Below are positions 541-13,657 of a DNA stretch of 14,993 bases, piece by piece; positions within the stretch are counted from its first letter, which is position 1; each line of letters opens with the position of its first letter. The notes beneath the pieces are model-generated. The model did no database searches and was not told the origin of the DNA. It saw only the letters and a program-made list of their open reading frames with translations. The stretch comes from Candidatus Latescibacterota bacterium. GTDB taxonomy: Bacteria; Latescibacterota; UBA2968. The stretch lies in assembly GCA_038279365.1 (NCBI GenBank), contig JAYODI010000057.1, positions 1 to 14,993 on the forward strand, given 5' to 3'. The translations under genes and the position numbers were made by a program.

Positions 541-909
541 ATGATGCTTCTTGAATCCATTACGGAAGATAAAATTCGACAAATGGTCACACAGTTTTAT
601 CACAAGGTGCGCAATGACGACCTTTTGGGCCCTGTTTTTGGCCACCAAATTGCAGATCATGAATGGCCACATCACTTGGATCGCATGTGTGATTTTTGGT
701 CGAGTATTTTGCTTACAACAGGTCGTTTTCACGGGAATCCACGCCTCAAACATATGGCATTACCACATATTGAACCCGAGCACTTTGACCGTTGGTTGGC
801 GTTGTTTGAGCCCACCCTTTACGATATTTATGATGAAGTTACTGCGGCTCAAATTTTTGCACGTGCACTTAGAATGAGAGCGGTGCTTCAGGAAGCTGCT
901 TGTCAATAA
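541..909 (+). CDS. Group III truncated haemoglobin (trHbP/Ctb-like 2/2 globin)
   Basis: Motifs FYHKVRNDDLLGPVF, WPHHLDRMCDFWSS, GRFHGNPRLKH, HFDRWLALF typical of group III trHb. Starts 4 nt after the Rrf2 stop; the start may be ATG 544. Confidence 0.9.
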   Translation: MMLLESITEDKIRQMVTQFYHKVRNDDLLGPVFGHQIADHEWPHHLDRMCDFWSSILLTTGRFHGNPRLKHMALPHIEPEHFDRWLALFEPTLYDIYDEVTAAQIFARALRMRAVLQEAACQ

Positions 910-938
910 GGACGACGGTTGAGCGAGCAGTAAAAATA

Positions 939-968
939 AAAAGGGTGATCCTATTGGATCACCCTTTT
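939..968. terminator. Bidirectional intrinsic terminator between convergent trHb and VOC genes
   Basis: AAAAGGGTGATCC-tatt-GGATCACCCTTTT, a perfect 13-bp stem with A and T runs on both sides. Confidence 0.85.
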
Positions 969-988
969 ATGTTCTCTTGTAGAATTTT

Positions 989-1363
989 TTATAAAATCTG
1001 CCCGATATCCAATCGGTTACCATCCGGGTCGGCAATTACAAAATCACGCAACCCATACTCAGCATCACGCATACCTTTGACAATGCGTACACCCGCTTCA
1101 TCTAATGCCTGATAAAGTACTTGAGCATCACTGACCAATAGATGCAATACATTGCGGTCTGATGCGTGATGATTGGGCTTTAATGTTAAATGAATTTCTG
1201 CATCGTCTTTTTTTAAAATGACAAAACCAACTGGCTCACCGTTTTCAAAAATCTTTTTAAAACCCAGCTTCTGCGTGTAAAATAATACAGCCGTAAGTAT
1301 GTTTGTTACGGGAATGGTGGGTGCAACACGTCCAAAACGCACAGCATGAGCACCTGTTGTCAT
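989..1363 (-). CDS. VOC family protein (glyoxalase/bleomycin resistance superfamily), 124 aa
   Basis: VAPTIPV...FYTQKLGF and YGLRDFVIADPDGNRLDIGQ motifs. Start moved from the ORF-track 1510 to ATG 1363, which follows a perfect AGGAGG (1370..1375). Confidence 0.88.
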   Translation of the reverse strand: MTTGAHAVRFGRVAPTIPVTNILTAVLFYTQKLGFKKIFENGEPVGFVILKKDDAEIHLTLKPNHHASDRNVLHLLVSDAQVLYQALDEAGVRIVKGMRDAEYGLRDFVIADPDGNRLDIGQIL

Positions 1364-1470
1364 CGCAAACCTCCTCGAAATCAAATGCACACCATCAGAG
1401 GCGGTGCTCATGAGGTGATTGTTTGATCTTTGAATAGAAAGCGAGGCAGTGCCCGCGGTAAAGGATTTCT
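1364..1470 (-). promoter_or_regulatory. Candidate structured 5' leader of the VOC gene (RBS-sequestering, switch-like)
   Basis: Hand-folded stems CCUCG/CGAGG and AGAUCAAA/UUUGAUUU cover part of the RBS. An alternative hairpin at 1441..1456 hides the anti-RBS. Confidence 0.35.
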
Positions 1471-1475
1471 TGTTG

Positions 1476-1504
1476 GATATAGTTACATAATGGGAATCTG
1501 TCAA
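1476..1504 (-). promoter_or_regulatory. Putative sigma70 promoter of the VOC gene
   Basis: Minus strand TTGACA (1499..1504), 17-bp spacer, TATATC (1476..1481), just downstream of the ftsZ terminator. Confidence 0.5.
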
Positions 1505-1539
1505 TATCAAAAATGGTTCTTATGTAACAAGGCTTTCTT

Positions 1540-1578
1540 AAAAAAAAAGCGCAAAGGAAAAATCCTCTGCGCTTTTTT
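1540..1578 (-). terminator. Rho-independent terminator of the dcw cluster (after ftsZ)
   Basis: Minus strand GCGCAGAGGA-UUUU-UCCUUUGCGC (10 bp, one G-U) followed by 9 U. A T6 run on the other side suggests it may work in both directions. Confidence 0.88.
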
Positions 1579-1594
1579 ATTTATGGATGGGGGT

Positions 1595-2770
1595 TTATCC
1601 CTCTTTTTGTTGCATTTGTCGACGCAAAAATGTGGGATATTCTAAATCGTCCAGTGAGGGTTCATTTCCTTTTTTGGTTTCTCGTTTTTGTTCTGCCTCG
1701 GCATTGCCCCCATCTAACTTACGCATAAATGCGGGTACATCAGGGCCCAATGTGCGTGTGGTGCTTGAAGGTTTGCGTGCGTTGTTGTTGGCGTCTGCCG
1801 TTTTGGTTGCTGGAGAGTTAAAACCCGTTGCAATGACTGTGACACGCAGTTCGTCACCCATGCTGTCGTCTAATACGGTACCCCAAATGATGTTGGCTTC
1901 GTTGCCAACGGCTTCGGTTACAAGGCTGACGGCTTTGTCTACTTCAAATAGTTTAAGATCGCTACCGGCTGAAATATTGACCAATACACCCCGAGCCCCT
2001 GAGACAGAAACATCGTCGAGTAAAGGACTTTTAAGTGCCTTTTCTGCTGCTAAAATGGCCCGATTTTCCCCTGAGGCTTCTGCCGTACCCATCAAAGCAT
2101 CGCCCCCTTCTTTCATGACTGTTCGCACGTCGTTAAAGTCGAGGTTGACTTCACCGGGTATGGTGATCAAATCTGAAATACCACGTGTGGCTTGGAGCAA
2201 CACATCATCGGCCATGCGGAAGGCATCGCGCAAAGTGGTGTCGGCAGAACTGATGGCCAACAAACGTTGGTTGGGAATGATGATGACCGTATCGGCTGCG
2301 GCTTTGAGCGCGGCAATACCTGCATCGGCATTGCGACTGCGTGGCAAACCCTCCATGGTGAAGGGTCTGCTGACAATGCCAACGGTGAGGGCTCCGGCCT
2401 CTCGTGCAATTTCTGCAACGATGGGTGCGGCACCTGTGCCTGTGCCACCGCCCATGCCTGCCGCAACAAAAACCATGTCGGAACCCGATAAAATTTCGGC
2501 GACTTGGTCGCGGTCTTCTTCGATGGCCTTGGCCCCTATGCCAGGGTCTGCTCCTGCGCCCAAACCGCGGGTCACATTGCGGCCAATTTGAAGGCGTTGA
2601 GCAGCCTGCGAAAGTTCTAAGTCTTGTTCATCCGTATTAATGGCGATGAAATCAACGCCTCTGAGGCCGGATTCAATCATACGGTTGATGGCATTGCCAC
2701 CAGACCCACCAACACCCACGACCCGAAGTTTGGCCTGGTTTTCGGTATCGACAATTGAAAAGGTTACCAC
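1595..2770 (-). CDS. ftsZ: Cell division protein FtsZ
   Basis: [11 protein letters not shown], tubulin signature [10 protein letters not shown]7 loop NLDFND, C-terminal [14 protein letters not shown] start with AGGAGG at 2777..2782. Confidence 0.99.
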
Positions 2771-5946: not shown

Positions 5947-7314
5947 TTAGCTTTGTTTTTGCAGTGCTTGCCACACTTGGTGGGGCACTTTTTCTATGTC
6001 ACCGGCACCCATAACAACAAGTAAGTCACCGGGTTTTAGATTTTGAATGAGTGTGTCTGTTAAGTTTGCAATTGTGGGTGCATAGTTTGCATGGGGTATT
6101 TTGTTTGTAATAAACATGCCGTCTATACCAGATATAGGTTTTTCACGTGCAGGATAAATGTCGGTTAAATAAACCTGATCGGCGGCTTGTAACTCCTTTG
6201 CAAATGCATCTCCAAAGTCGCGTGTACGAGAGTATAAATGCGGTTGAAACGCGGCCACAATACGCCCTGTCCATCCCTGACGTGCGGCTTGTAAGGTGGC
6301 GCGAATTTCGGTGGGATGATGCGCATAATCATCAACAACTGTGATGTTGTTTGCCGTACCCAATATGTCAAATCGGCGGTGCACACCTCTAAAAGACTCG
6401 ATGCCTTTTTTAATGTGTTGCCAGTCGATATTGAGAAAACGCCCGACACCTATGGCGGCCAATGCATTGCGTACATTGTGGATTCCCGGCACTTGGAGGG
6501 TGAGGGTGTCTATTTTTGTTTGATTGTCAAAGAGCGTAAATGTGCTGCCAAATTCTGATGCCTTGAGGTTGTCAAAACGAAGTTGACTGCTTTTGTTTTG
6601 GCCATACATCATTTTTGAAGCTTGCGTATTAAGATGCAGGGTGCAAATTTCGGGTTCGTCGCAACATAAGATTGCACACCCATGTGAGGGGAGCAAATTG
6701 ATAAACTGTTCAAATGTGTTGCGTATGTCGTTGAGATCTTTATAACAATCGAGGTGGTCGGCTTCAAGCGTGGTGACCACGGCAACGGTGGGTTTTAGTG
6801 CCAAAAATGTTCGGTCGTATTCGTCGGCTTCAATGACCCAATATGGACCTTTGCCTATTTTTAGATTGTTTTCTAAACCTTGAACAATTCCGCCTACCAG
6901 AAGGGTTGGATCAAGCCCACCTGCTTCAAGTACGGCGCCCACCATGGCTGTGGTGGTGGTTTTTCCATGTGTGCCAGCAATGCAAATGGTTGGGTGTGAT
7001 TGCGTTAAATAACCCAACAATTCTGCCCGACGCACCAAGGGCACATTTTTTTGTGTGGCGGCTTGTCGTTCGGGGTTTGTAGGATCGGTTGCTGAGGTGT
7101 AAATGACCACATCGGCATTTTGAATATTTTCTGCCGCGTGTCCAATCTTTATTGAAATACCAAGGGTTTTAAGCCTGTCGGTTAAGGCTGAGGCTTGGCG
7201 ATCAGACCCCGATATATGGCAACCGCGTTGGTGCAAAAGCTCGGCCAACGCGCTCATGCTCACGCCACCAATGCCAACAAAATGCACACGGGTTCCGGTC
7301 TTTAGTTCGACCAT
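5947..7314 (-). CDS. murC: UDP-N-acetylmuramate--L-alanine ligase
   Basis: HFVGIGGVSMS, AGTHGKTTTT, EADEYD, DDYAHHPTE, FQPHLYSRT, MGAGDI. Start set to ATG 7314. Confidence 0.98.
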   Translation of the reverse strand: MVELKTGTRVHFVGIGGVSMSALAELLHQRGCHISGSDRQASALTDRLKTLGISIKIGHAAENIQNADVVIYTSATDPTNPERQAATQKNVPLVRRAELLGYLTQSHPTICIAGTHGKTTTTAMVGAVLEAGGLDPTLLVGGIVQGLENNLKIGKGPYWVIEADEYDRTFLALKPTVAVVTTLEADHLDCYKDLNDIRNTFEQFINLLPSHGCAILCCDEPEICTLHLNTQASKMMYGQNKSSQLRFDNLKASEFGSTFTLFDNQTKIDTLTLQVPGIHNVRNALAAIGVGRFLNIDWQHIKKGIESFRGVHRRFDILGTANNITVVDDYAHHPTEIRATLQAARQGWTGRIVAAFQPHLYSRTRDFGDAFAKELQAADQVYLTDIYPAREKPISGIDGMFITNKIPHANYAPTIANLTDTLIQNLKPGDLLVVMGAGDIEKVPHQVWQALQKQS

Positions 7315-7438
7315 GCAAACAATCCGCAAATTTATGGGAAATAATAGTGTGGGGAAAAACAAGACGGCAAATGGCAAACGACAAACGTGTCCATATTGAA
7401 GCAAATGTTTAGAGACGTATGACGTTTTTCCTTTTGCT

Positions 7439-8632
7439 TTAACCGAATGTATGACCGGACCGGGGAAAGGTTCGGGGAGACCATATTTCGGAGCGGTTTG
7501 GCAAGGCGCTTTTGTCGCGTGCACCTTGTCGGCCAATGCTGATGAGAATGCCTGTGGCCATCAGCGTGAACAGCAGGGAAGAACCACCATAACTGATAAA
7601 AGGGAGGGGAAGTCCCGTGGCAGGTAACAGCCCGGTGGTTACACCCATGTTGATAAGTGCGTAAACCAAAATGAGACAGGTTAAACCCGATGCCAACATG
7701 TATCCAAATGCATCGGGGGCCGTGCGGGCAATGCGAAAGCCCAAGCGCCCAAAAATGAGAAAACAGAATAAAACACCCAACGTACCCAACAACCCAATTT
7801 CTTCACCAATAATGCTAAAAACAAAATCGGTATGTGGCTCGGGCAAAAAGAAGTACTTTTGCTGACCTTGTCCCAACCCAACACCTGTAAGCCCACCGCT
7901 GCCTAATGCCAGAAGCGATTGGGCAACGTGATAGCCTGTGCCTTGAACATCATCGGCTGGAAAGAGAAAGGTCAACACGCGTTCTTTGCGATAGCCGATG
8001 ACAAAAATGATCAAATACAAAAAGGGTAAGAGGGCCAAACCTGTTGCAAAAATGTGTTGTAAACGTACACCTGCTAAAAAAAGCATCAATGTGCAGGTGA
8101 TGCCAATGGCCAATGCCGTACCCAAATCGGGTTGTAAGATGATCATGCCCATTGCAAGTGCAATGATAACGGCATGGGGGATAAACCCTTGTTGAAAATT
8201 TTTGATAAATTGTTGGCGGCGCGTTAATGAATCTGCCAAATAAATGACCAATACCAAGCGCATCATGTCGGCAGGTTGAAATGCGCCCCCTGGTAAGGGT
8301 ATCCAGCGATAGGCGCCGCGCACTTTGCCCACGCCAAAAACTTTGAGCATCAGAACGATGAGCAACCCCAAAAAACCGATGGCCAACAACAACCGAGCAG
8401 CTTTGCGCCAAATGCGATAATCTATGCGTGCCATAACGGCCATGACGCACAAGCTGATGACCATGCGAATGGTCCAACGTTTGAGAAAAAAGTTGCTGTT
8501 TTCAAAGCGAAATTGTGCCAAACCTGAGCTGGAACTGTAAATCATAACGGTTCCAAAACCGATGAGGCCTGCCACAACCAACAACAGTGCGATCCACGTT
8601 TGGCGATCACCTTGTTCGGATATGAAAGTCAT
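7439..8632 (-). CDS. ftsW: SEDS family peptidoglycan glycosyltransferase FtsW
   Basis: About 10 TM helices with GAYRWI, FQP, QPDLGT, LPEPHTDF, PATGLPLPFISYGGSS; position in the dcw cluster. Confidence 0.96.
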   Translation of the reverse strand: MTFISEQGDRQTWIALLLVVAGLIGFGTVMIYSSSSGLAQFRFENSNFFLKRWTIRMVISLCVMAVMARIDYRIWRKAARLLLAIGFLGLLIVLMLKVFGVGKVRGAYRWIPLPGGAFQPADMMRLVLVIYLADSLTRRQQFIKNFQQGFIPHAVIIALAMGMIILQPDLGTALAIGITCTLMLFLAGVRLQHIFATGLALLPFLYLIIFVIGYRKERVLTFLFPADDVQGTGYHVAQSLLALGSGGLTGVGLGQGQQKYFFLPEPHTDFVFSIIGEEIGLLGTLGVLFCFLIFGRLGFRIARTAPDAFGYMLASGLTCLILVYALINMGVTTGLLPATGLPLPFISYGGSSLLFTLMATGILISIGRQGARDKSALPNRSEIWSPRTFPRSGHTFG

Positions 8633-8674
8633 AGGGGAGACAAAGAGCGCTGATTGTGCTCTTTTTCTTTCAGG

Positions 8675-10063
8675 TTACAGTTTAAACCCCAATGCCTCTA
8701 CAATGCGTTCCATTGCCAAGCCACGAGACCCTTTTACAAGTAGGGTATCACCTGGGGTTATAAATGCTTTGAGTGTTGCAATCAATGTTTCTGAATCGGT
8801 AAATGCATGGCTCATTGTGGGCGAAAGGCCCGCCGATTTTGCAGCGTCTGTGACCAGGTGTGCATGCTCACCTAAAGCAAAAAGCGCATCTACTTTGGAT
8901 CCTGTTTCTTTTCCCAAATCTTGATGTGCCTGATTTGCCATATTGCCCAACTCGCGCATATCGCCCAATACGGCGATGCGTCGCCCCCCAGCACTTATGT
9001 CAATTTGTGACAAAATTTCAAGTGCGGCGTGCATCGATGCTGGGTTGGCATTGTAACTGTCGTTGATGAGGCGTAACCCATTTTGTGATATCACTTGGCT
9101 GCGCAATTTGGTTGGCACAAAGTGGGCCAACGCGTGTGCGGCCTTTTCTAAAGGCACATTGAGTGCGACCCCTGCTGCTATTGCTGCCAACGCATTGTAA
9201 ACATTGTGACGCCCCGGTACAGACAAAGAAAAAATACGGCCCTGCAGAGTGAAATGACCTCGACGCTCCTGATCCAGACTGAGTCCCTCCCCACGAAACT
9301 GACTATGTTGCTCGATACCGAAGCCAAGGAGTCTCCCCTTAACTTTTACTCTCTCCTTGGACAGTAACAGGTCATCGAGATTCATTATAGTCATTGAAGA
9401 CTCATCCAGGTATTCCAGGAGTTCCCCTTTGGCCTTAGCCACCCCCTCTACAGAGCCTAAAAACTCTAAATGTGTTGGTCCTACGTTTGTGATGATGCCA
9501 ATTGTTGGTTGCGCAATGTGACACAGATACCGCATTTCACCAAAGCCGGCAATGCCCATTTCAATGACGGCCACTTCGTGCTGGGCATTGAGTTGAAACA
9601 GTGTTAAAGGCACCCCCAACTGATTGTTGAGGTTCCCTTGTGTGGCTAAAACGTTGTACTGGGTTTGTAAAACGGCAGCGACCATGTCTTTGGTGGTGGT
9701 TTTGCCATTGCTGCCAGTGATGCCAATAACGGGAATTTGAAACTTTTTGCGATAAGCCCTGGCCACATCTCCCATTGCCAGATCGGGTGCTTCAACAACA
9801 ATTAAGGGTTTCGATGGGCGTGGGGTTTGTGCTTCAAACCACTGACGACTCACAACACCTGCCGAAGCACCGCTTTGGAGGGCGGCGTCAACAAATTGAT
9901 GACCATCGACGCGCTCACCAGGTAAAGCAAAGAAAAGTTCGCCTTCTTTGATGGTGCGGTTATCGCGTTCACCACCTGTTGGGAAAATGTGTGTGGGATC
10001 GGTTTGCCCTACCCACTCGCCGTTTGTGGCCGTGATGACCTCTTGAAGCGAAAAACCTTCCAT
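8675..10063 (-). CDS. murF: UDP-N-acetylmuramoyl-tripeptide--D-alanyl-D-alanine ligase
   Basis: LPGERVDGH, ITGSNGKTTTK, GNLNNQLGVP, IEMG, HLEFLGS, NDSYNANP, LGDMRELG, KGSRG. ATG 1 nt after the murE stop. Confidence 0.98.
   Translation of the reverse strand: MEGFSLQEVITATNGEWVGQTDPTHIFPTGGERDNRTIKEGELFFALPGERVDGHQFVDAALQSGASAGVVSRQWFEAQTPRPSKPLIVVEAPDLAMGDVARAYRKKFQIPVIGITGSNGKTTTKDMVAAVLQTQYNVLATQGNLNNQLGVPLTLFQLNAQHEVAVIEMGIAGFGEMRYLCHIAQPTIGIITNVGPTHLEFLGSVEGVAKAKGELLEYLDESSMTIMNLDDLLLSKERVKVKGRLLGFGIEQHSQFRGEGLSLDQERRGHFTLQGRIFSLSVPGRHNVYNALAAIAAGVALNVPLEKAAHALAHFVPTKLRSQVISQNGLRLINDSYNANPASMHAALEILSQIDISAGGRRIAVLGDMRELGNMANQAHQDLGKETGSKVDALFALGEHAHLVTDAAKSAGLSPTMSHAFTDSETLIATLKAFITPGDTLLVKGSRGLAMERIVEALGFKL
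9238..9457 (-). other. Long (~220 nt) irregular RNA hairpin embedded in the murF coding sequence; candidate novel structured RNA element
   Basis: Eight nested helices found by hand, including a 12+9-bp basal stem and a perfect CCAAGGAG/CUCCUUGG apical stem. G-U pairs favour the mRNA strand. Confidence 0.7.
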
Positions 10064-10064
10064 T

Positions 10065-11522
10065 TTAAGCCTTGCTCATCGTCTTTAAAATGTTTCGAGC
10101 CACTTCTCGGTCGTCAAAGTGTGTTTTGACGTGGTTGATTTCTTGGTAATCTTCGTGGCCTTTGCCTGCAATAATGATCAAATCGCCGGGTTGTGCTTTT
10201 TGGATGGCCATTTCAATGGCTTTTTGGCGATGTACTTCAACAACGTGTGGTGCATGACCGACGCCAGGTAAAATGTCGGCAATAATGGCTTCTGGGTCTT
10301 CTGTGCGGGGGTTGTCGGAGGTGACAACCGTTAAGTCGGCCAATCGCGCCGAAATTTCACCCATAACAGGTCGTTTGCCTCTGTCGCGATCTCCGCCACA
10401 GCCAAAAACGCAGATGAGTTGCCCTTGTGTAAATTCGCGTGCGGTGGTGAGTACGTTTTCAAGACCATCGGGTGCATGGGCATAATCGACAATCACGCCA
10501 AATTTTTGCCCACAATCGATGCCTTCAAAACGCCCCGGCACACGCACTTCACGCACGGCTTCAGAGATGACACCTGGGGCAATACCCAGTGCCAACCCTG
10601 TTGCTACCGCTGCGGCGACATTGTAAAACTGAAAACGCCCTTGCAAGACCATAGACAAGTCCATTTTGCCAACAGGTGTTTGCAGTTGCAATTGGGTACC
10701 ACGCCAATCGGTTTTGCCCTGAAGGATACGCACATTGGCATTTTCAGCTTTGCCATAGCGTATGACCTTGGCTTGGCAATGGGCCAAAAGCTTTTCGGTG
10801 GCTTTGTCGTCTGTGTTAACGATTGCGCTTGAATCTGATTTTAAGTTGTCAAAGAGCGTTGCCTTGGCGGCAAGATAAGCATCGAAGGAGCCGTGATAGT
10901 CGAGATGGTCGCGGGTCAAATTTGTAAAAACAGCGGCTTCAAAGTGAAGACCTTCAACCCTTTTTTGAGCAAGGCCTTCAGAAGTTGCTTCCATAACGGC
11001 CGATTGGCATTGTGCATCAGTCATGGCCCGAAACAAACGATGGAGATCATGGGCTTGAGGTGTTGAATTTTGAGAAATTTCTCGATTGTCACCCCATTTG
11101 TGTTCAATGGTGCCAATAAGACCGGGTGCCAATTGTGCTGCTTTTAAAATGGCATGTATGAGGTAAACTGTTGATGTTTTACCATTTGTGCCAGTTACAC
11201 CCACCAGTCGGAGTTGGTCTGTAGGGTGATTATAGAACTTTTTTGCCAGAAAGGCCAGTGTTTGGTGTGTGTCATTTGTATAAATAAGTGGCACAGACCC
11301 CGTTTCGGCATCTTTTTCGGCTACAATTGCAGCGGCTTTGGCCTCAATGGCTTGTGTAATAAAAGGGTGTCGATCTGGTAATTTGGCATCCCCTCTTAAG
11401 GCCACAAACAGGTCACCAGGTTTGACACGGCCCGAATGGGTGGCTATTCCGCCAATGTTGGGGTCGCTGTCTATTCGATATCGGATATTGGGTAGGTCGG
11501 CCAATAATTCGCTAAGGCGCAT
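10065..11522 (-). CDS. murE: UDP-N-acetylmuramoyl-L-alanyl-D-glutamate--2,6-diaminopimelate ligase
   Basis: VTGTNGKTST, FTNLTRDHLDYH, VDYAHAPD, GCGGDRD, SDNPR (DNPR indicates meso-DAP specificity), AGKGHE. Confidence 0.98.
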   Translation of the reverse strand: MRLSELLADLPNIRYRIDSDPNIGGIATHSGRVKPGDLFVALRGDAKLPDRHPFITQAIEAKAAAIVAEKDAETGSVPLIYTNDTHQTLAFLAKKFYNHPTDQLRLVGVTGTNGKTSTVYLIHAILKAAQLAPGLIGTIEHKWGDNREISQNSTPQAHDLHRLFRAMTDAQCQSAVMEATSEGLAQKRVEGLHFEAAVFTNLTRDHLDYHGSFDAYLAAKATLFDNLKSDSSAIVNTDDKATEKLLAHCQAKVIRYGKAENANVRILQGKTDWRGTQLQLQTPVGKMDLSMVLQGRFQFYNVAAAVATGLALGIAPGVISEAVREVRVPGRFEGIDCGQKFGVIVDYAHAPDGLENVLTTAREFTQGQLICVFGCGGDRDRGKRPVMGEISARLADLTVVTSDNPRTEDPEAIIADILPGVGHAPHVVEVHRQKAIEMAIQKAQPGDLIIIAGKGHEDYQEINHVKTHFDDREVARNILKTMSKA

Positions 11523-11525
11523 GGC

Positions 11526-13583
11526 TTAACTTTCACGTGTACATGCCACTTTGCACAAGGTGCCTGGGATAACTTGTGAGCCTGGTGCGGGTGTTAGACG
11601 CATTACTTTGCCACTGCCCTGAATTTCTACGCGCAGGCCCAATGCTGTCAAATGTGATATGGCTTGGCGAACAGATGTGCCACGCAGGTCTGGTATTTGA
11701 AGTGCCTTGTGATCGGGCATTGGATTTGCAAGTACCAAGTGGGCTTCGCGTTGCTTCATATTGAGTTGTTGCTCAATTACTTTGGTTCCATTACCCGAAA
11801 ATTTCCATGTCCAGCCAAGGCGTTTGAGCACATCTGTTGCGGTTTGGCTTGAAAGCCCTACCAAGTGTATGTCTGAATTGCTTGTGGTGTCTTTTTGACT
11901 TTCAGCCAAGCGTGCTTTGTGGCGCAAGGGGGTTTGGCGCAAACTGAGGATGCGTTGCATAATACGACTAAATGCAGGTGCTGCGACTTGACTGGCAAAA
12001 TGTATGTCTTTTGGACTGTCGATGGCAACCAAGCAGAGCAGTTCGGGGCGTTCGGCCGGCAAAAATCCGATGAAGGAGGATATGTAACGATCTGGATCGT
12101 AACCGGCTTGCCCTTCTTTGATTTGCTGTGCGGTTCCCGTTTTGCCAGCCACGCGATATCCGGGCACTTGGGCATTTTCACCAGTACCGTGTGTGACCAC
12201 GCCTTCTAATATGGCAGTGAGCTCGGCTGCGGTTTCGGGTGAAATGACTTGGCGAATGGGGCGGGGCGCATTTTCTAAGGTGGTGATTTCACCCCGCGTT
12301 GTTTTTTTAAATATGGTGGGTGTCATCAAATGACCACCATTTGCAATGGCCCCATAAGCGGTGGCCACTTGAAGGGCTGTGGCGGCAATTTCCTGTCCGA
12401 TGGAGAGGGTTTCGAGTGACCGTTCAGACCATTCGGATGGATGGCGCAGTTGCCCTGAGGTTTCGCCAGGTAAGTCACTGCCTGTTTTGGCACCAAACCC
12501 AAAGAGGCGCATATAGCGAAACATATCGACTTTGCCTATTTCACGTGCAATTTTGATTGTTCCAATGTTGCTCGACTCTTCAACAATTTCGCGTACGGTC
12601 AACCACCCACTGGGGTGGGTATCGTTAATGACTTTGCCGCCTGCTACGGGCAGGCGACCATTTTCGCAAAAGAATTTGTCATTGGACCGAATCTTTTTTT
12701 CCTCAAGACCTGCCGCAACGGCCACCACCTTAAATGTGGAACCGGGTTCAAATTGGTCTGTGACAACACGGTTGCGTCGTTTCCAAGATTTGTATTCGGT
12801 AAAGGCATTTGGGTTGTATGTCGGTACATTGGCAATAGCCAAAATTTCACCCGTATGGGGTGCCATGACAATGGCAATGCCACTGTGGGCCTGAAATGTG
12901 TTGATGGTTGCTGATAATTCTTCTTCGGCAATAGATTGGTAATCGGCATCGAGGGTGAGATACAGATCTTCACCATCTTGAGGCATATTCTTGATGGCTC
13001 CCAAAGCACTAATAACATTGCCACGGGCGTCAACGCGTGCCGATAACTCTCCGGGTTTGCCTCGCAAAATGGGATCAAAACCGCGCTCAATGCCTTCAAT
13101 GCCCAAATTGTCTGTATCGGTATATCCCAGTACTTGCCCGGCCAGTGCGCCCATTGGATAACTGCGTCGCATTTCGACCACGCGTCCAATGCCATTGGGC
13201 AGATTATCGGGTGAAGGCCCATTCATCATTTTGCGTTCCAACCAAACAAAAGGACGATTTTGCTTAAGCCTTTTTAAAAGCGTCGTTTCGTTTTGCCCGG
13301 CTTCGTTTGAAAAACGCACTGCCAAAGAGTGTAGGCTGTCGAGATTAGAAACGCTGTTGACAAAGAACGATTGCGACTCAAGGTTGGTCGCCAATACCCG
13401 GCCCTGATGGTCTAAAATGCGCCCCCGATTGGCCTGTAATACTTTTTGTTTGACATGCTGGTTTCGGGCGCGGTGGGTATAGATGTCTACAGACCATATT
13501 TGCAAAGATGCCAGTCTTAAAGACAGCAAGAGGGCAAAACTCAAGCCTAAAAAGGCAATGATTTTGAGGCGATCTGTTGGCAT
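11526..13583 (-). CDS. ftsI: Class B penicillin-binding protein FtsI/PBP3 with C-terminal PASTA domain(s)
   Basis: N-terminal TM, RGRILD, RSYP, catalytic motifs STFK, SSN, KTGTAQ; C-terminal IPDLRG...GSGKV...P.PGS PASTA-like repeat. Confidence 0.96.
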   Translation of the reverse strand: MPTDRLKIIAFLGLSFALLLSLRLASLQIWSVDIYTHRARNQHVKQKVLQANRGRILDHQGRVLATNLESQSFFVNSVSNLDSLHSLAVRFSNEAGQNETTLLKRLKQNRPFVWLERKMMNGPSPDNLPNGIGRVVEMRRSYPMGALAGQVLGYTDTDNLGIEGIERGFDPILRGKPGELSARVDARGNVISALGAIKNMPQDGEDLYLTLDADYQSIAEEELSATINTFQAHSGIAIVMAPHTGEILAIANVPTYNPNAFTEYKSWKRRNRVVTDQFEPGSTFKVVAVAAGLEEKKIRSNDKFFCENGRLPVAGGKVINDTHPSGWLTVREIVEESSNIGTIKIAREIGKVDMFRYMRLFGFGAKTGSDLPGETSGQLRHPSEWSERSLETLSIGQEIAATALQVATAYGAIANGGHLMTPTIFKKTTRGEITTLENAPRPIRQVISPETAAELTAILEGVVTHGTGENAQVPGYRVAGKTGTAQQIKEGQAGYDPDRYISSFIGFLPAERPELLCLVAIDSPKDIHFASQVAAPAFSRIMQRILSLRQTPLRHKARLAESQKDTTSNSDIHLVGLSSQTATDVLKRLGWTWKFSGNGTKVIEQQLNMKQREAHLVLANPMPDHKALQIPDLRGTSVRQAISHLTALGLRVEIQGSGKVMRLTPAPGSQVIPGTLCKVACTRES

Positions 13584-13657
13584 AGTGGGGAGAAGGTTAA
13601 ATGTGAATCTGCAAATCGGCGATTTAAAGGCTTTGTTTTGTGATTCCCTATTCGTTT

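Follow-up and report, generated by a model that had tools for sequence, protein, structure and literature searches.

A rod-like structured RNA encoded within the murF gene of Candidatus Latescibacterota

Can the codons of an essential enzyme also serve as the gene for a large structured RNA? The question is raised by a stretch of 14,993 nucleotides (nt) of DNA, referred to here as the window, which is contig JAYODI010000057.1 of a metagenome-assembled genome (MAG) from Candidatus Latescibacterota (assembly GCA_038279365.1). Its minus strand carries a division and cell wall (dcw) gene cluster, and within the murF gene of this cluster an earlier note on the same DNA had pointed to a hairpin of about 220 nt, 9238-9457 on the minus strand, as a selected, dual-coded RNA element. 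Conserved structured RNAs are usually sought in intergenic DNA, whereas this rod is encoded wholly by the codons of an essential and well-studied enzyme. The comparison with related genomes described below supports the idea of selection on a dual-coded, sense-strand RNA. As to what such an RNA is for, we consider it probable, at somewhat better than even odds (about 0.55), that murF is a dual-function gene, its codons 203-276 encoding both the middle domain of the Mur ligase and a structured RNA of about 220 nt internal to the open reading frame (ORF), similar in function to the small RNA (sRNA) FtsO of Escherichia coli.

Fold and selection in the murF reading frame

The sequence and overall shape of the hairpin are as first described. 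RNAfold predicts that the minus strand of 9238-9457 forms a single rod-like hairpin of -86.5 kcal/mol, closed by a 21-nt purine-rich loop at 9332-9352, whereas the plus strand of the same segment reaches only -61.2 kcal/mol (z -2.45). The predicted rod includes the outer helices of 12 and 9 base pairs (bp), CUCCUGG/UCAGGAG, UGAGUCUU/GGGACUCA, CUCGAU(g)ACC/GGUAUCGAG and CCAAGGAG/CUCCUUGG. The RNAalifold consensus of 38 orthologues contains 63 pairs in nine helices. The eight helices of the earlier note are only partly retained: the noted helices form in the RNAfold rod, but two of them shrink in the consensus of the relatives, CUGGA/UCUGG to three pairs and UGACUAU/AUAGUCA to four.

Measured against chance, the fold is unusually stable. 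None of 200 dinucleotide shuffles was as stable (z -3.94), and the fold is likewise better than shuffles that preserve the codons, with z -4.97 when synonymous codons were permuted across the gene (0 of 1000 as stable) and z -4.23 when they were permuted in the region only (1 of 1000); because the segment was picked after the fact, these shuffle z-scores apply to the fixed segment. An RNALfold scan of the 15 kb gave the hairpin a z of -4.9 and returned at least six other places as low or lower. Folding energy by itself would not pick out the hairpin, and it is the comparison with relatives that decides. The other folds returned by the scan, with z about -4.9 to -6.5, include 12242-12479 (-) and 11666-11840 (-), both within ftsI; 8002-8205 (+), which is antisense to ftsW (z -5.7) and has no synonymous dip or other conservation signal; and 876-1067 (both strands) and 1459-1603 (-), which are situated at the ends of genes and are possibly terminators.

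The nearest murF orthologues available for this comparison have 60-67% protein identity. Across codons 203-276, DNA identity is nonetheless 82-89% in 32 relatives aligned without gaps, and third-position identity to the window, which is 0.21-0.48 in the flanks, rises to 0.67-0.84 in the block (29 orthologues of 60-67% protein identity). The same picture emerges when the relatives are compared among themselves by the entropy of synonymous codons, counted only among sequences that carry the majority amino acid. In families f1 and f2 (n = 38) this entropy is 0.24-0.55 in codons 201-280 against 0.99-1.69 elsewhere in murF, and in families f3 and f4 (n = 37) it is 0.33-0.65 against 1.18-1.88, a drop of 3-5 fold in two separate clades. 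Resolved by codon, the low block sets in precisely at codon 203 and tails off near codon 280, and these borders are those of the hairpin. The neighbouring genes have no such dip: neither murE (29 sequences) nor ftsW (30 sequences) contains a single 20-codon window below 0.87. The protein is affected as well, in that amino-acid identity is 0.64-0.92 across the block and 0.31-0.81 elsewhere in murF, and the segment of MurF that codes the 3' arm, normally variable, is almost fixed. The MurF protein itself has been shaped by the RNA, at a cost to the protein.

Pairing is conserved along with sequence. Each of the 38 orthologues of the order folds alone into the rod, at -80 to -101 kcal/mol, and in their alignment 99.5% of the cells pair, compared with 40-53% when the partners are slid; double changes occur in four pairs. 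Across 58 diverse matches to a covariance model, 92.8% of 3615 cells pair (39-51% when slid), and 29 of the 63 pairs show double changes, compared with 8-13 in slid controls and 15.8 in shuffles, none of 500 of which reached 29. The alignment of these 58 sequences was fitted to the covariance model, and the counts were hence repeated on a codon alignment guided by the protein and blind to structure. Here, in f3 and f4, 85.8% of the cells pair (43-53% slid) and 20 pairs show double changes (5-10 slid). Reading the alignments as antisense lowers the pairing from 99.6% to 82.1% in f1 and f2 and from 85.8% to 75.0% in f3 and f4; the G-U pairs therefore work on the sense strand, as had been claimed for the wobble pairs of the window. 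We conclude that the fold is kept by selection on the sense-strand RNA.

Architecture and distribution of the element

The rod has a distinct architecture (Table 1). Its closing region is a near-continuous duplex of 14+5+4+7 pairs, and further along internal loops of 3x12 and 11x8 nt lie on either side of a 4-bp helix that shows covariation. The clearest compensatory pair is 39/190 in helix 3, which changes from C-G to U-A and has both sides changed in 14 of 35 distinct sequences; the apical helix (helix 8) is paired in 94.6% of cells and has three pairs with double changes. Three unpaired G-rich motifs are invariant down to their synonymous third positions (71-72 non-redundant sequences): the bulge AAAGGGGAR, where the synonymous third positions A30 and G33 are also invariant; AAGGGGAGA, the last nine bases of the apical loop (9332-9340; positions 118-126), third positions G120, G123 and A126 included; and GUGGGGA, positions 164-170 of the asymmetric internal loop. 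Unpaired synonymous bases that are frozen in this way are explained neither by pairing nor by the protein, which indicates sequence-specific recognition of the RNA. Other parts are free to vary. In genera g2 and g3 a deletion removes 6 nt from the first part of the apical loop, and a U-rich tract that follows the closing stem is confined to two families and is therefore not part of the conserved element.

Table 1. Features of the murF locus, in window coordinates. Position p of the hairpin corresponds to 9457-p+1 on the minus strand.
Feature	Coordinates	Strand	Remarks
murF, UDP-MurNAc-pentapeptide synthetase, host gene	8675..10063	-	Mur ligase ORF of 462 amino acids between murE and ftsW
Whole rod-like RNA element, 220 nt	9238..9457	-	Also the block of suppressed synonymous change
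Closing stem, 5' arm (positions 1-20)	9438..9457	-	Pairs with 9238-9258; helix 1: 19 pairs, 9 double-changed (58 sequences)
Closing stem, 3' arm (positions 200-220)	9238..9258	-	RNA contigs of metatranscriptomic runs X12 and X17 end at 9239
One-sided 9-nt bulge AAAGGGGAR (positions 28-36)	9422..9430	-	Invariant in 71/71 non-redundant sequences
Helix 3, 5' arm (positions 37-43)	9415..9421	-	Pairs with 9266-9272
Asymmetric internal loop GUUUCGUGGGGA (positions 159-170)	9288..9299	-	Conserved; third-position U165 and G168 invariant
Helix 5, 3' arm GGGACUC (positions 171-177)	9281..9287	-	Pairs with 9397-9403; 97.8% of cells paired
Apical helix, 5' arm (positions 96-105, with AAGGAG)	9353..9362	-	Partner 9323-9331 (with CUCCU)
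Purine-rich apical loop, 21 nt (positions 106-126)	9332..9352	-	
U-rich tract GUAUUUUUUCUUUGU directly 3' of the closing stem	9220..9237	-	Families f1 and f2 only

A search of 151 genomes of the phylum with a covariance model of the 38 orthologues gave exactly one full-length match, always in murF, in 112 of them; in the window's own genome, too, the element is single-copy. The carriers comprise every family of one class and one further family. Matches were found in 26 of 29 genomes of f1 in addition to the window's own, in 19/19 of f2, 61/64 of f3 and 2/2 of f4, and, outside this class, in both genomes of f6, at about 71-73 bits. The match in the only f12 genome, G050, is doubtful (29.5 bits, E 2e-4), and the remaining families (f5, f7-f11, f13 and f14) have none in 33 genomes. 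All six misses within the class come from assemblies in which murF is not intact: a murF match is absent from the assemblies of G001, G002, G007, G074 and G106, and in G103 the assembly breaks within the hairpin, leaving murF in two parts at the ends of two contigs. In this last genome (98% complete; L156 and L157 on contigs C115 and C8) the two contig ends overlap at residues 230-250, and it may be that the inverted repeat, or strain variation, breaks assemblies at the hairpin. A separate motif scan, with one genome per species, returned 47 records, each with one match; most are from Candidatus Latescibacterota, and the remaining few are Gemmatimonadota or 'uncultured bacterium' MAGs.

It is informative to consider the genomes in which the element is altered or missing. 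In the murF of five non-carrier families (35-44% identity, tblastn), the same segment folds with z +0.8 to -1.0 relative to synonymous permutations, which makes the rod an acquisition specific to its clade and not a general property of murF. In the codon alignment, f6 retains just 59.5% of the pairs seen in the window, and this form may be diverged or partial. The versions found in f6 (L152 and L153) and f12 (L154) are weaker, with a fold z of -2.3 to -3.4 (-2.6 in f12); the window's outer pairs mostly fail in them, and they retain the apical AAGGGGAGACUCCU as well as the encoded KGRLLGF. These forms may be either ancestral or decaying.

The host gene and its surroundings are otherwise those of a dcw cluster, with 11 genes on one strand (mraW, ftsL, ftsI with a PASTA domain, murE, murF, ftsW, murC, murB, ftsQ, ftsA and ftsZ) and the hairpin roughly in the middle. 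Pfam alone identifies only the three Mur-ligase domains of the host gene, and the name murF comes from its position and its orthologues. Residues 115-297 of MurF match Mur_ligase_M, profile positions 1-199 of 200, and the hairpin falls within this middle domain, where the protein carries no insertion when set against the Pfam profile. The order murF-ftsW-murC-murB is uninterrupted (5947-10063), and mraY, murD and murG lie outside this dcw cluster. Adjacency of murF and ftsW occurs in 29 of 29 f1 and f2 relatives examined, and the usual order murF-mraY in three non-carrier families (f11, f10 and f7). We rejected the idea that the hairpin is tied to gene order, since murF-ftsW adjacency is also found in two non-carrier families, f14 and f8. 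The listed murC ORF (TTG at 7536, 529 amino acids) overlaps the end of ftsW by 98 nt (7439-7536); its Mur ligase domain begins only at residue 84, and the true murC start is therefore probably further downstream.

The RNA piece and its possible roles

Evidence that the element exists as a separate RNA comes from metatranscriptomes. Six metatranscriptomic runs contain part of murF, and the contigs of four of these, from four studies, were mapped to window positions 8000-10800, where parts lacking RNA contig cover carry no weight. In all four runs a separate piece of about 170-205 nt coincides with the hairpin, and in three its depth is far above that of the flanking murF pieces. The piece spans 9239-9439 in X12 (contig of 224 nt, depth 290, other pieces 2.4-4.7), 9273-9442 in X18 (170 nt, depth 286, others 2-3.4), 9239-9432 in X17 (194 nt, depth 20.8, the one other piece 2.1) and 9242-9445 in X15 (204 nt, depth 11.9, others 4.8-10.1), and all four are identical to the window, with zero mismatches. 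As these contigs total only 170-224 nt, they are not parts of longer abundant transcripts. Of the hairpin's 190 31-mers, just 14 also occur in the other species compared, all of them in the first 44 nt at the 5' end, so that cover from relatives cannot account for the depth. In X12 a loose end of 23 nt adjoins 9239, which we take to be Illumina adapter; if it is, the base of the closing stem is where a great many fragments end. Entropy profiles reveal no conserved block upstream of the hairpin in murF that might be a promoter, and a scan of the minus strand found no promoter-like site, so that processing is a more probable origin than separate transcription. Taken together, the contigs are good though not conclusive evidence that a stable RNA of about 200-220 nt exists as a discrete species. 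Among the functions that had been proposed for the hairpin, an sRNA derived from the coding sequence fits best, given this separate RNA piece, and a translation pacing element would leave a separate and deeper piece unexplained.

How might such an RNA arise and act? The outer helices join bases some 200 nt apart, and the rod would be expected to form only on murF messenger RNA (mRNA) carrying no ribosomes. The single-stranded flanks might then be cut, or trimmed back to the closing stem, leaving a nuclease-resistant rod that outlives the mRNA. The three invariant G-rich motifs (the AAAGGGGAR bulge, AAGGGGAGA in the apical loop and GUGGGGA in the internal loop) could be the surfaces on which a trans-acting partner docks, be it a protein or a C/U-rich RNA. 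The rod would in that case be a decoy or scaffold whose supply is coupled to transcription of the dcw operon, as with FtsO in E. coli.

Several observations weigh against a dual-function murF of this kind. The RNA evidence consists of assembled contigs, not reads, and contig depth is a poor measure of expression that sums over organisms; the depth figures are from RNA runs alone, and in X15 the depth is only slightly above that of the flanks. The 5' end of the RNA is undefined: the contigs stop at 9432-9445, where the 31-mers start being shared, and this sharing may explain why they stop there instead of at 9457. The three G-rich motifs also code conserved Gly, so their role in the RNA rests on the third positions only. 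Action in trans and the partner are a proposal only, and the stable fragment could be the by-product of a purely cis-acting element.

This last point leads to the alternative that survives best, one we regard as possible although clearly less probable than a dual-function murF. In this explanation the rod is an element of the dcw mRNA that acts solely in cis, its duplex forming when murF is untranslated and serving either as a stability barrier or as a site for processing or decay of the RNase III type. How strongly the upstream genes (mraW-murE) are expressed relative to the downstream ones (ftsW-ftsZ) would be set by this element. The closing duplex amounts to about two turns or more, a length that suffices for RNase III, and the element's place in the middle of an 11-gene cluster on one strand is well suited to such a role; furthermore, excising the observed RNA piece inevitably destroys the murF mRNA from which it comes. 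The earlier suggestion of an RNase III-like processing site is to this extent still a possible one. However, a plain duplex cleavage site needs no invariant unpaired synonymous motifs, the full 220 nt is conserved with the apical part included, and the fragment is apparently far deeper than the mRNA pieces in three of four runs. Cleavage ends with a 2-nt overhang are not readable from the contigs. A cis-acting element is compatible with the dual-function reading and does not exclude it.

A more far-reaching and improbable reading is that the rod is a housekeeping-grade global regulator of the class that has been moved in its entirety into an essential enzyme gene, either a 6S-like decoy for RNA polymerase or a mimic of the ribosome-binding site that titrates 30S subunits or C-rich sRNAs. 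If this were true, the dosage of the regulator would be hard-wired to how far the operon for cell wall and division is transcribed and occupied by ribosomes, and here would be a large functional noncoding RNA (ncRNA) gene without DNA of its own.

The narrower proposal of a 6S-like regulator nested in murF, a rod whose internal bubbles bind RNA polymerase, seems to us less likely still. The size of some 200-220 nt and the 3x12 and 11x8 loops around a 4-bp helix do resemble the 6S outline, and the RNA piece is apparently abundant; moreover, the window's own genome lacks matches to 6S-Flavo and, even at E<=10, to RF00013, and RF00013 has no match in any of the 117 carrier-clade genomes searched. 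Yet none of the 27 genomes from the non-carrier families f5, f7, f8, f10, f11, f13 and f14 has a detectable 6S RNA either, so its absence says little. The hairpin itself has no RF00013 match at E<=10, the central loops are divided by a covarying helix, and we know of no case of a 6S RNA embedded in coding sequence. An argument for 6S from complementary distribution was set aside as non-discriminating, with sub-threshold RF00013 matches only in f9 (5/6) and f12 (1/1) and none in the other 144 genomes, whether or not they carry the element. These sub-threshold matches lie in different gene contexts (YjeF/DnaG versus DeoR/PFOR), leaving no synteny to follow. Within the phylum as a whole, RF00013 is undetectable in 145 of 151 genomes, the window's own included.

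It is no likelier that the element is an intrinsic terminator or attenuator, in which the GC-rich closing stem and the U tract would stop transcription within murF when ribosomes lag. In the window and in most f1 and f2 relatives the U-rich tract does begin no more than 2 nt after the stem, but it is absent in f4, in most of f3 and in part of g2 and g3, where the hairpin is kept, and the RNA contigs end at the base of the stem (9239-9242), not within the U tract. A terminator scan finds none here, but it admits only loops of 3-8 nt and so leaves out a rod of this kind.

We consider it very unlikely that the conservation has a cause other than RNA structure, such as an overlapping ORF, a protein-bound DNA palindrome, recent transfer of the segment, or chance. 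The inverted repeat is of course present in the DNA too, and its folding energy is matched elsewhere in the window. However, the other five frames are closed, being free of stops in only 0-3 of 78 sequences compared with 77 of 78 for the murF frame; pairing is better on the sense strand than on the antisense because of the G-U pairs; nearly half of the pairs (29/63) show double compensatory changes; and the block occurs in 112 genomes of four-plus families and has diverged in step with them.

Finally, a sponge for CsrA, in which loops containing GGA titrate the protein as CsrB and RsmZ do, is scarcely credible and fails as a general explanation, for although the rod has four GGA motifs in unpaired or loop positions and CsrA is present in the window's genome (G000 C194:20737-20889), CsrA is found in 0 of 20 g5 and 0 of 19 f2 genomes, all of them carriers, many single-contig and 95-100% complete. 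Across the phylum CsrA is patchy (51 of 151 genomes). Pairing of the apical loop with C-rich motifs was also considered. The sequence UCUCCCC stands directly 5' of the ftsI and ftsW starts (about 13584-13596 and 8633-8642, minus strand) and is complementary to GGGGAGA of the invariant apical loop; the copy before ftsW is not conserved in relatives, the idea was dropped, and the complementarity is probably a coincidence.

Comparison with known RNAs

The element has no recognizable counterpart among catalogued RNA families; the earlier note had not recognized it as 6S, SRP, tmRNA or a known riboswitch. At gathering scores, Rfam has zero matches in the whole window, and at E<=10 the segment 9100-9600 yields two rows only, both at chance level (Enterococcus-1, 16.5 bits; snoR35, 14.2 bits). 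The RNA of the signal recognition particle is ruled out, as RF00169 lies elsewhere in the genome (G000 C17:4868-4968, 72.6 bits) and has no match in the hairpin. Literature searches gave no paper describing an RNA element for either murF or Latescibacterota, which is not proof of absence.

It is nonetheless worth placing the rod beside several known classes of RNA. With 6S RNA (RF00013) it shares a length of about 200 nt, internal loops and apparent abundance, but it has no match to the model, lies in coding sequence and seems to lack a single large central bubble. The substrates of RNase III, which include hairpins in mRNAs and in the precursors of ribosomal RNA, are similar in that a long imperfect duplex joins distant parts of a transcript, and excision of the enclosed part is plausible here too; in the murF rod, however, the enclosed part is itself conserved in sequence, in structure and in its invariant unpaired motifs. 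The large 'ornate' bacterial ncRNAs, among them OLE, raiA, ROOL and GOLLD, are stand-alone genes in intergenic DNA. Like them, the murF rod is large, restricted to a clade and highly conserved, with its function still to be found; unlike them, it is entirely dual-coded in an enzyme gene.

The closest parallel is with FtsO. In those sections of Adams et al. 2021 (PMC7815308) that concern it, FtsO is described as an ORF-internal sRNA inside ftsI of E. coli, with wobble identity of 91% versus 67% and reads that exceed those of the mRNA by orders of magnitude; processing generates its 5' end, it is a sponge for RybB, and its pairing site is in an unstructured region. The same source cites Dar and Sorek 2018 for RNAs derived from coding sequences. 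On the features covered there, the murF rod is similar in lying wholly inside an essential coding sequence of the dcw cluster, on the sense strand and with the frame intact; in having wobble positions much more conserved than the rest of the gene; and in appearing, to judge from contig depths, far above its host mRNA, probably by processing and without a promoter of its own. It differs in its gene, which is not ftsI, and in its phylum, and there is no relation in sequence and no Rfam match at E<=10; furthermore, it is about 220 nt long, with 63 conserved pairs and covariation.

As a kind, then, ORF-internal RNA is already known. What is new is the size, a rod backed by covariation, and conservation throughout a class in an essential enzyme gene of an uncultured phylum. 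The murF rod defines an RNA with which partners might be fished from Latescibacterota-rich samples, and local drops in synonymous variation within genes offer a practical route to such RNAs in MAGs. As far as the treatment in PMC7815308 extends, ORF-internal RNAs have so far been documented functionally for FtsO; with the murF rod they come to include a large structured RNA from an uncultured candidate phylum, located once again in the division and cell wall cluster.

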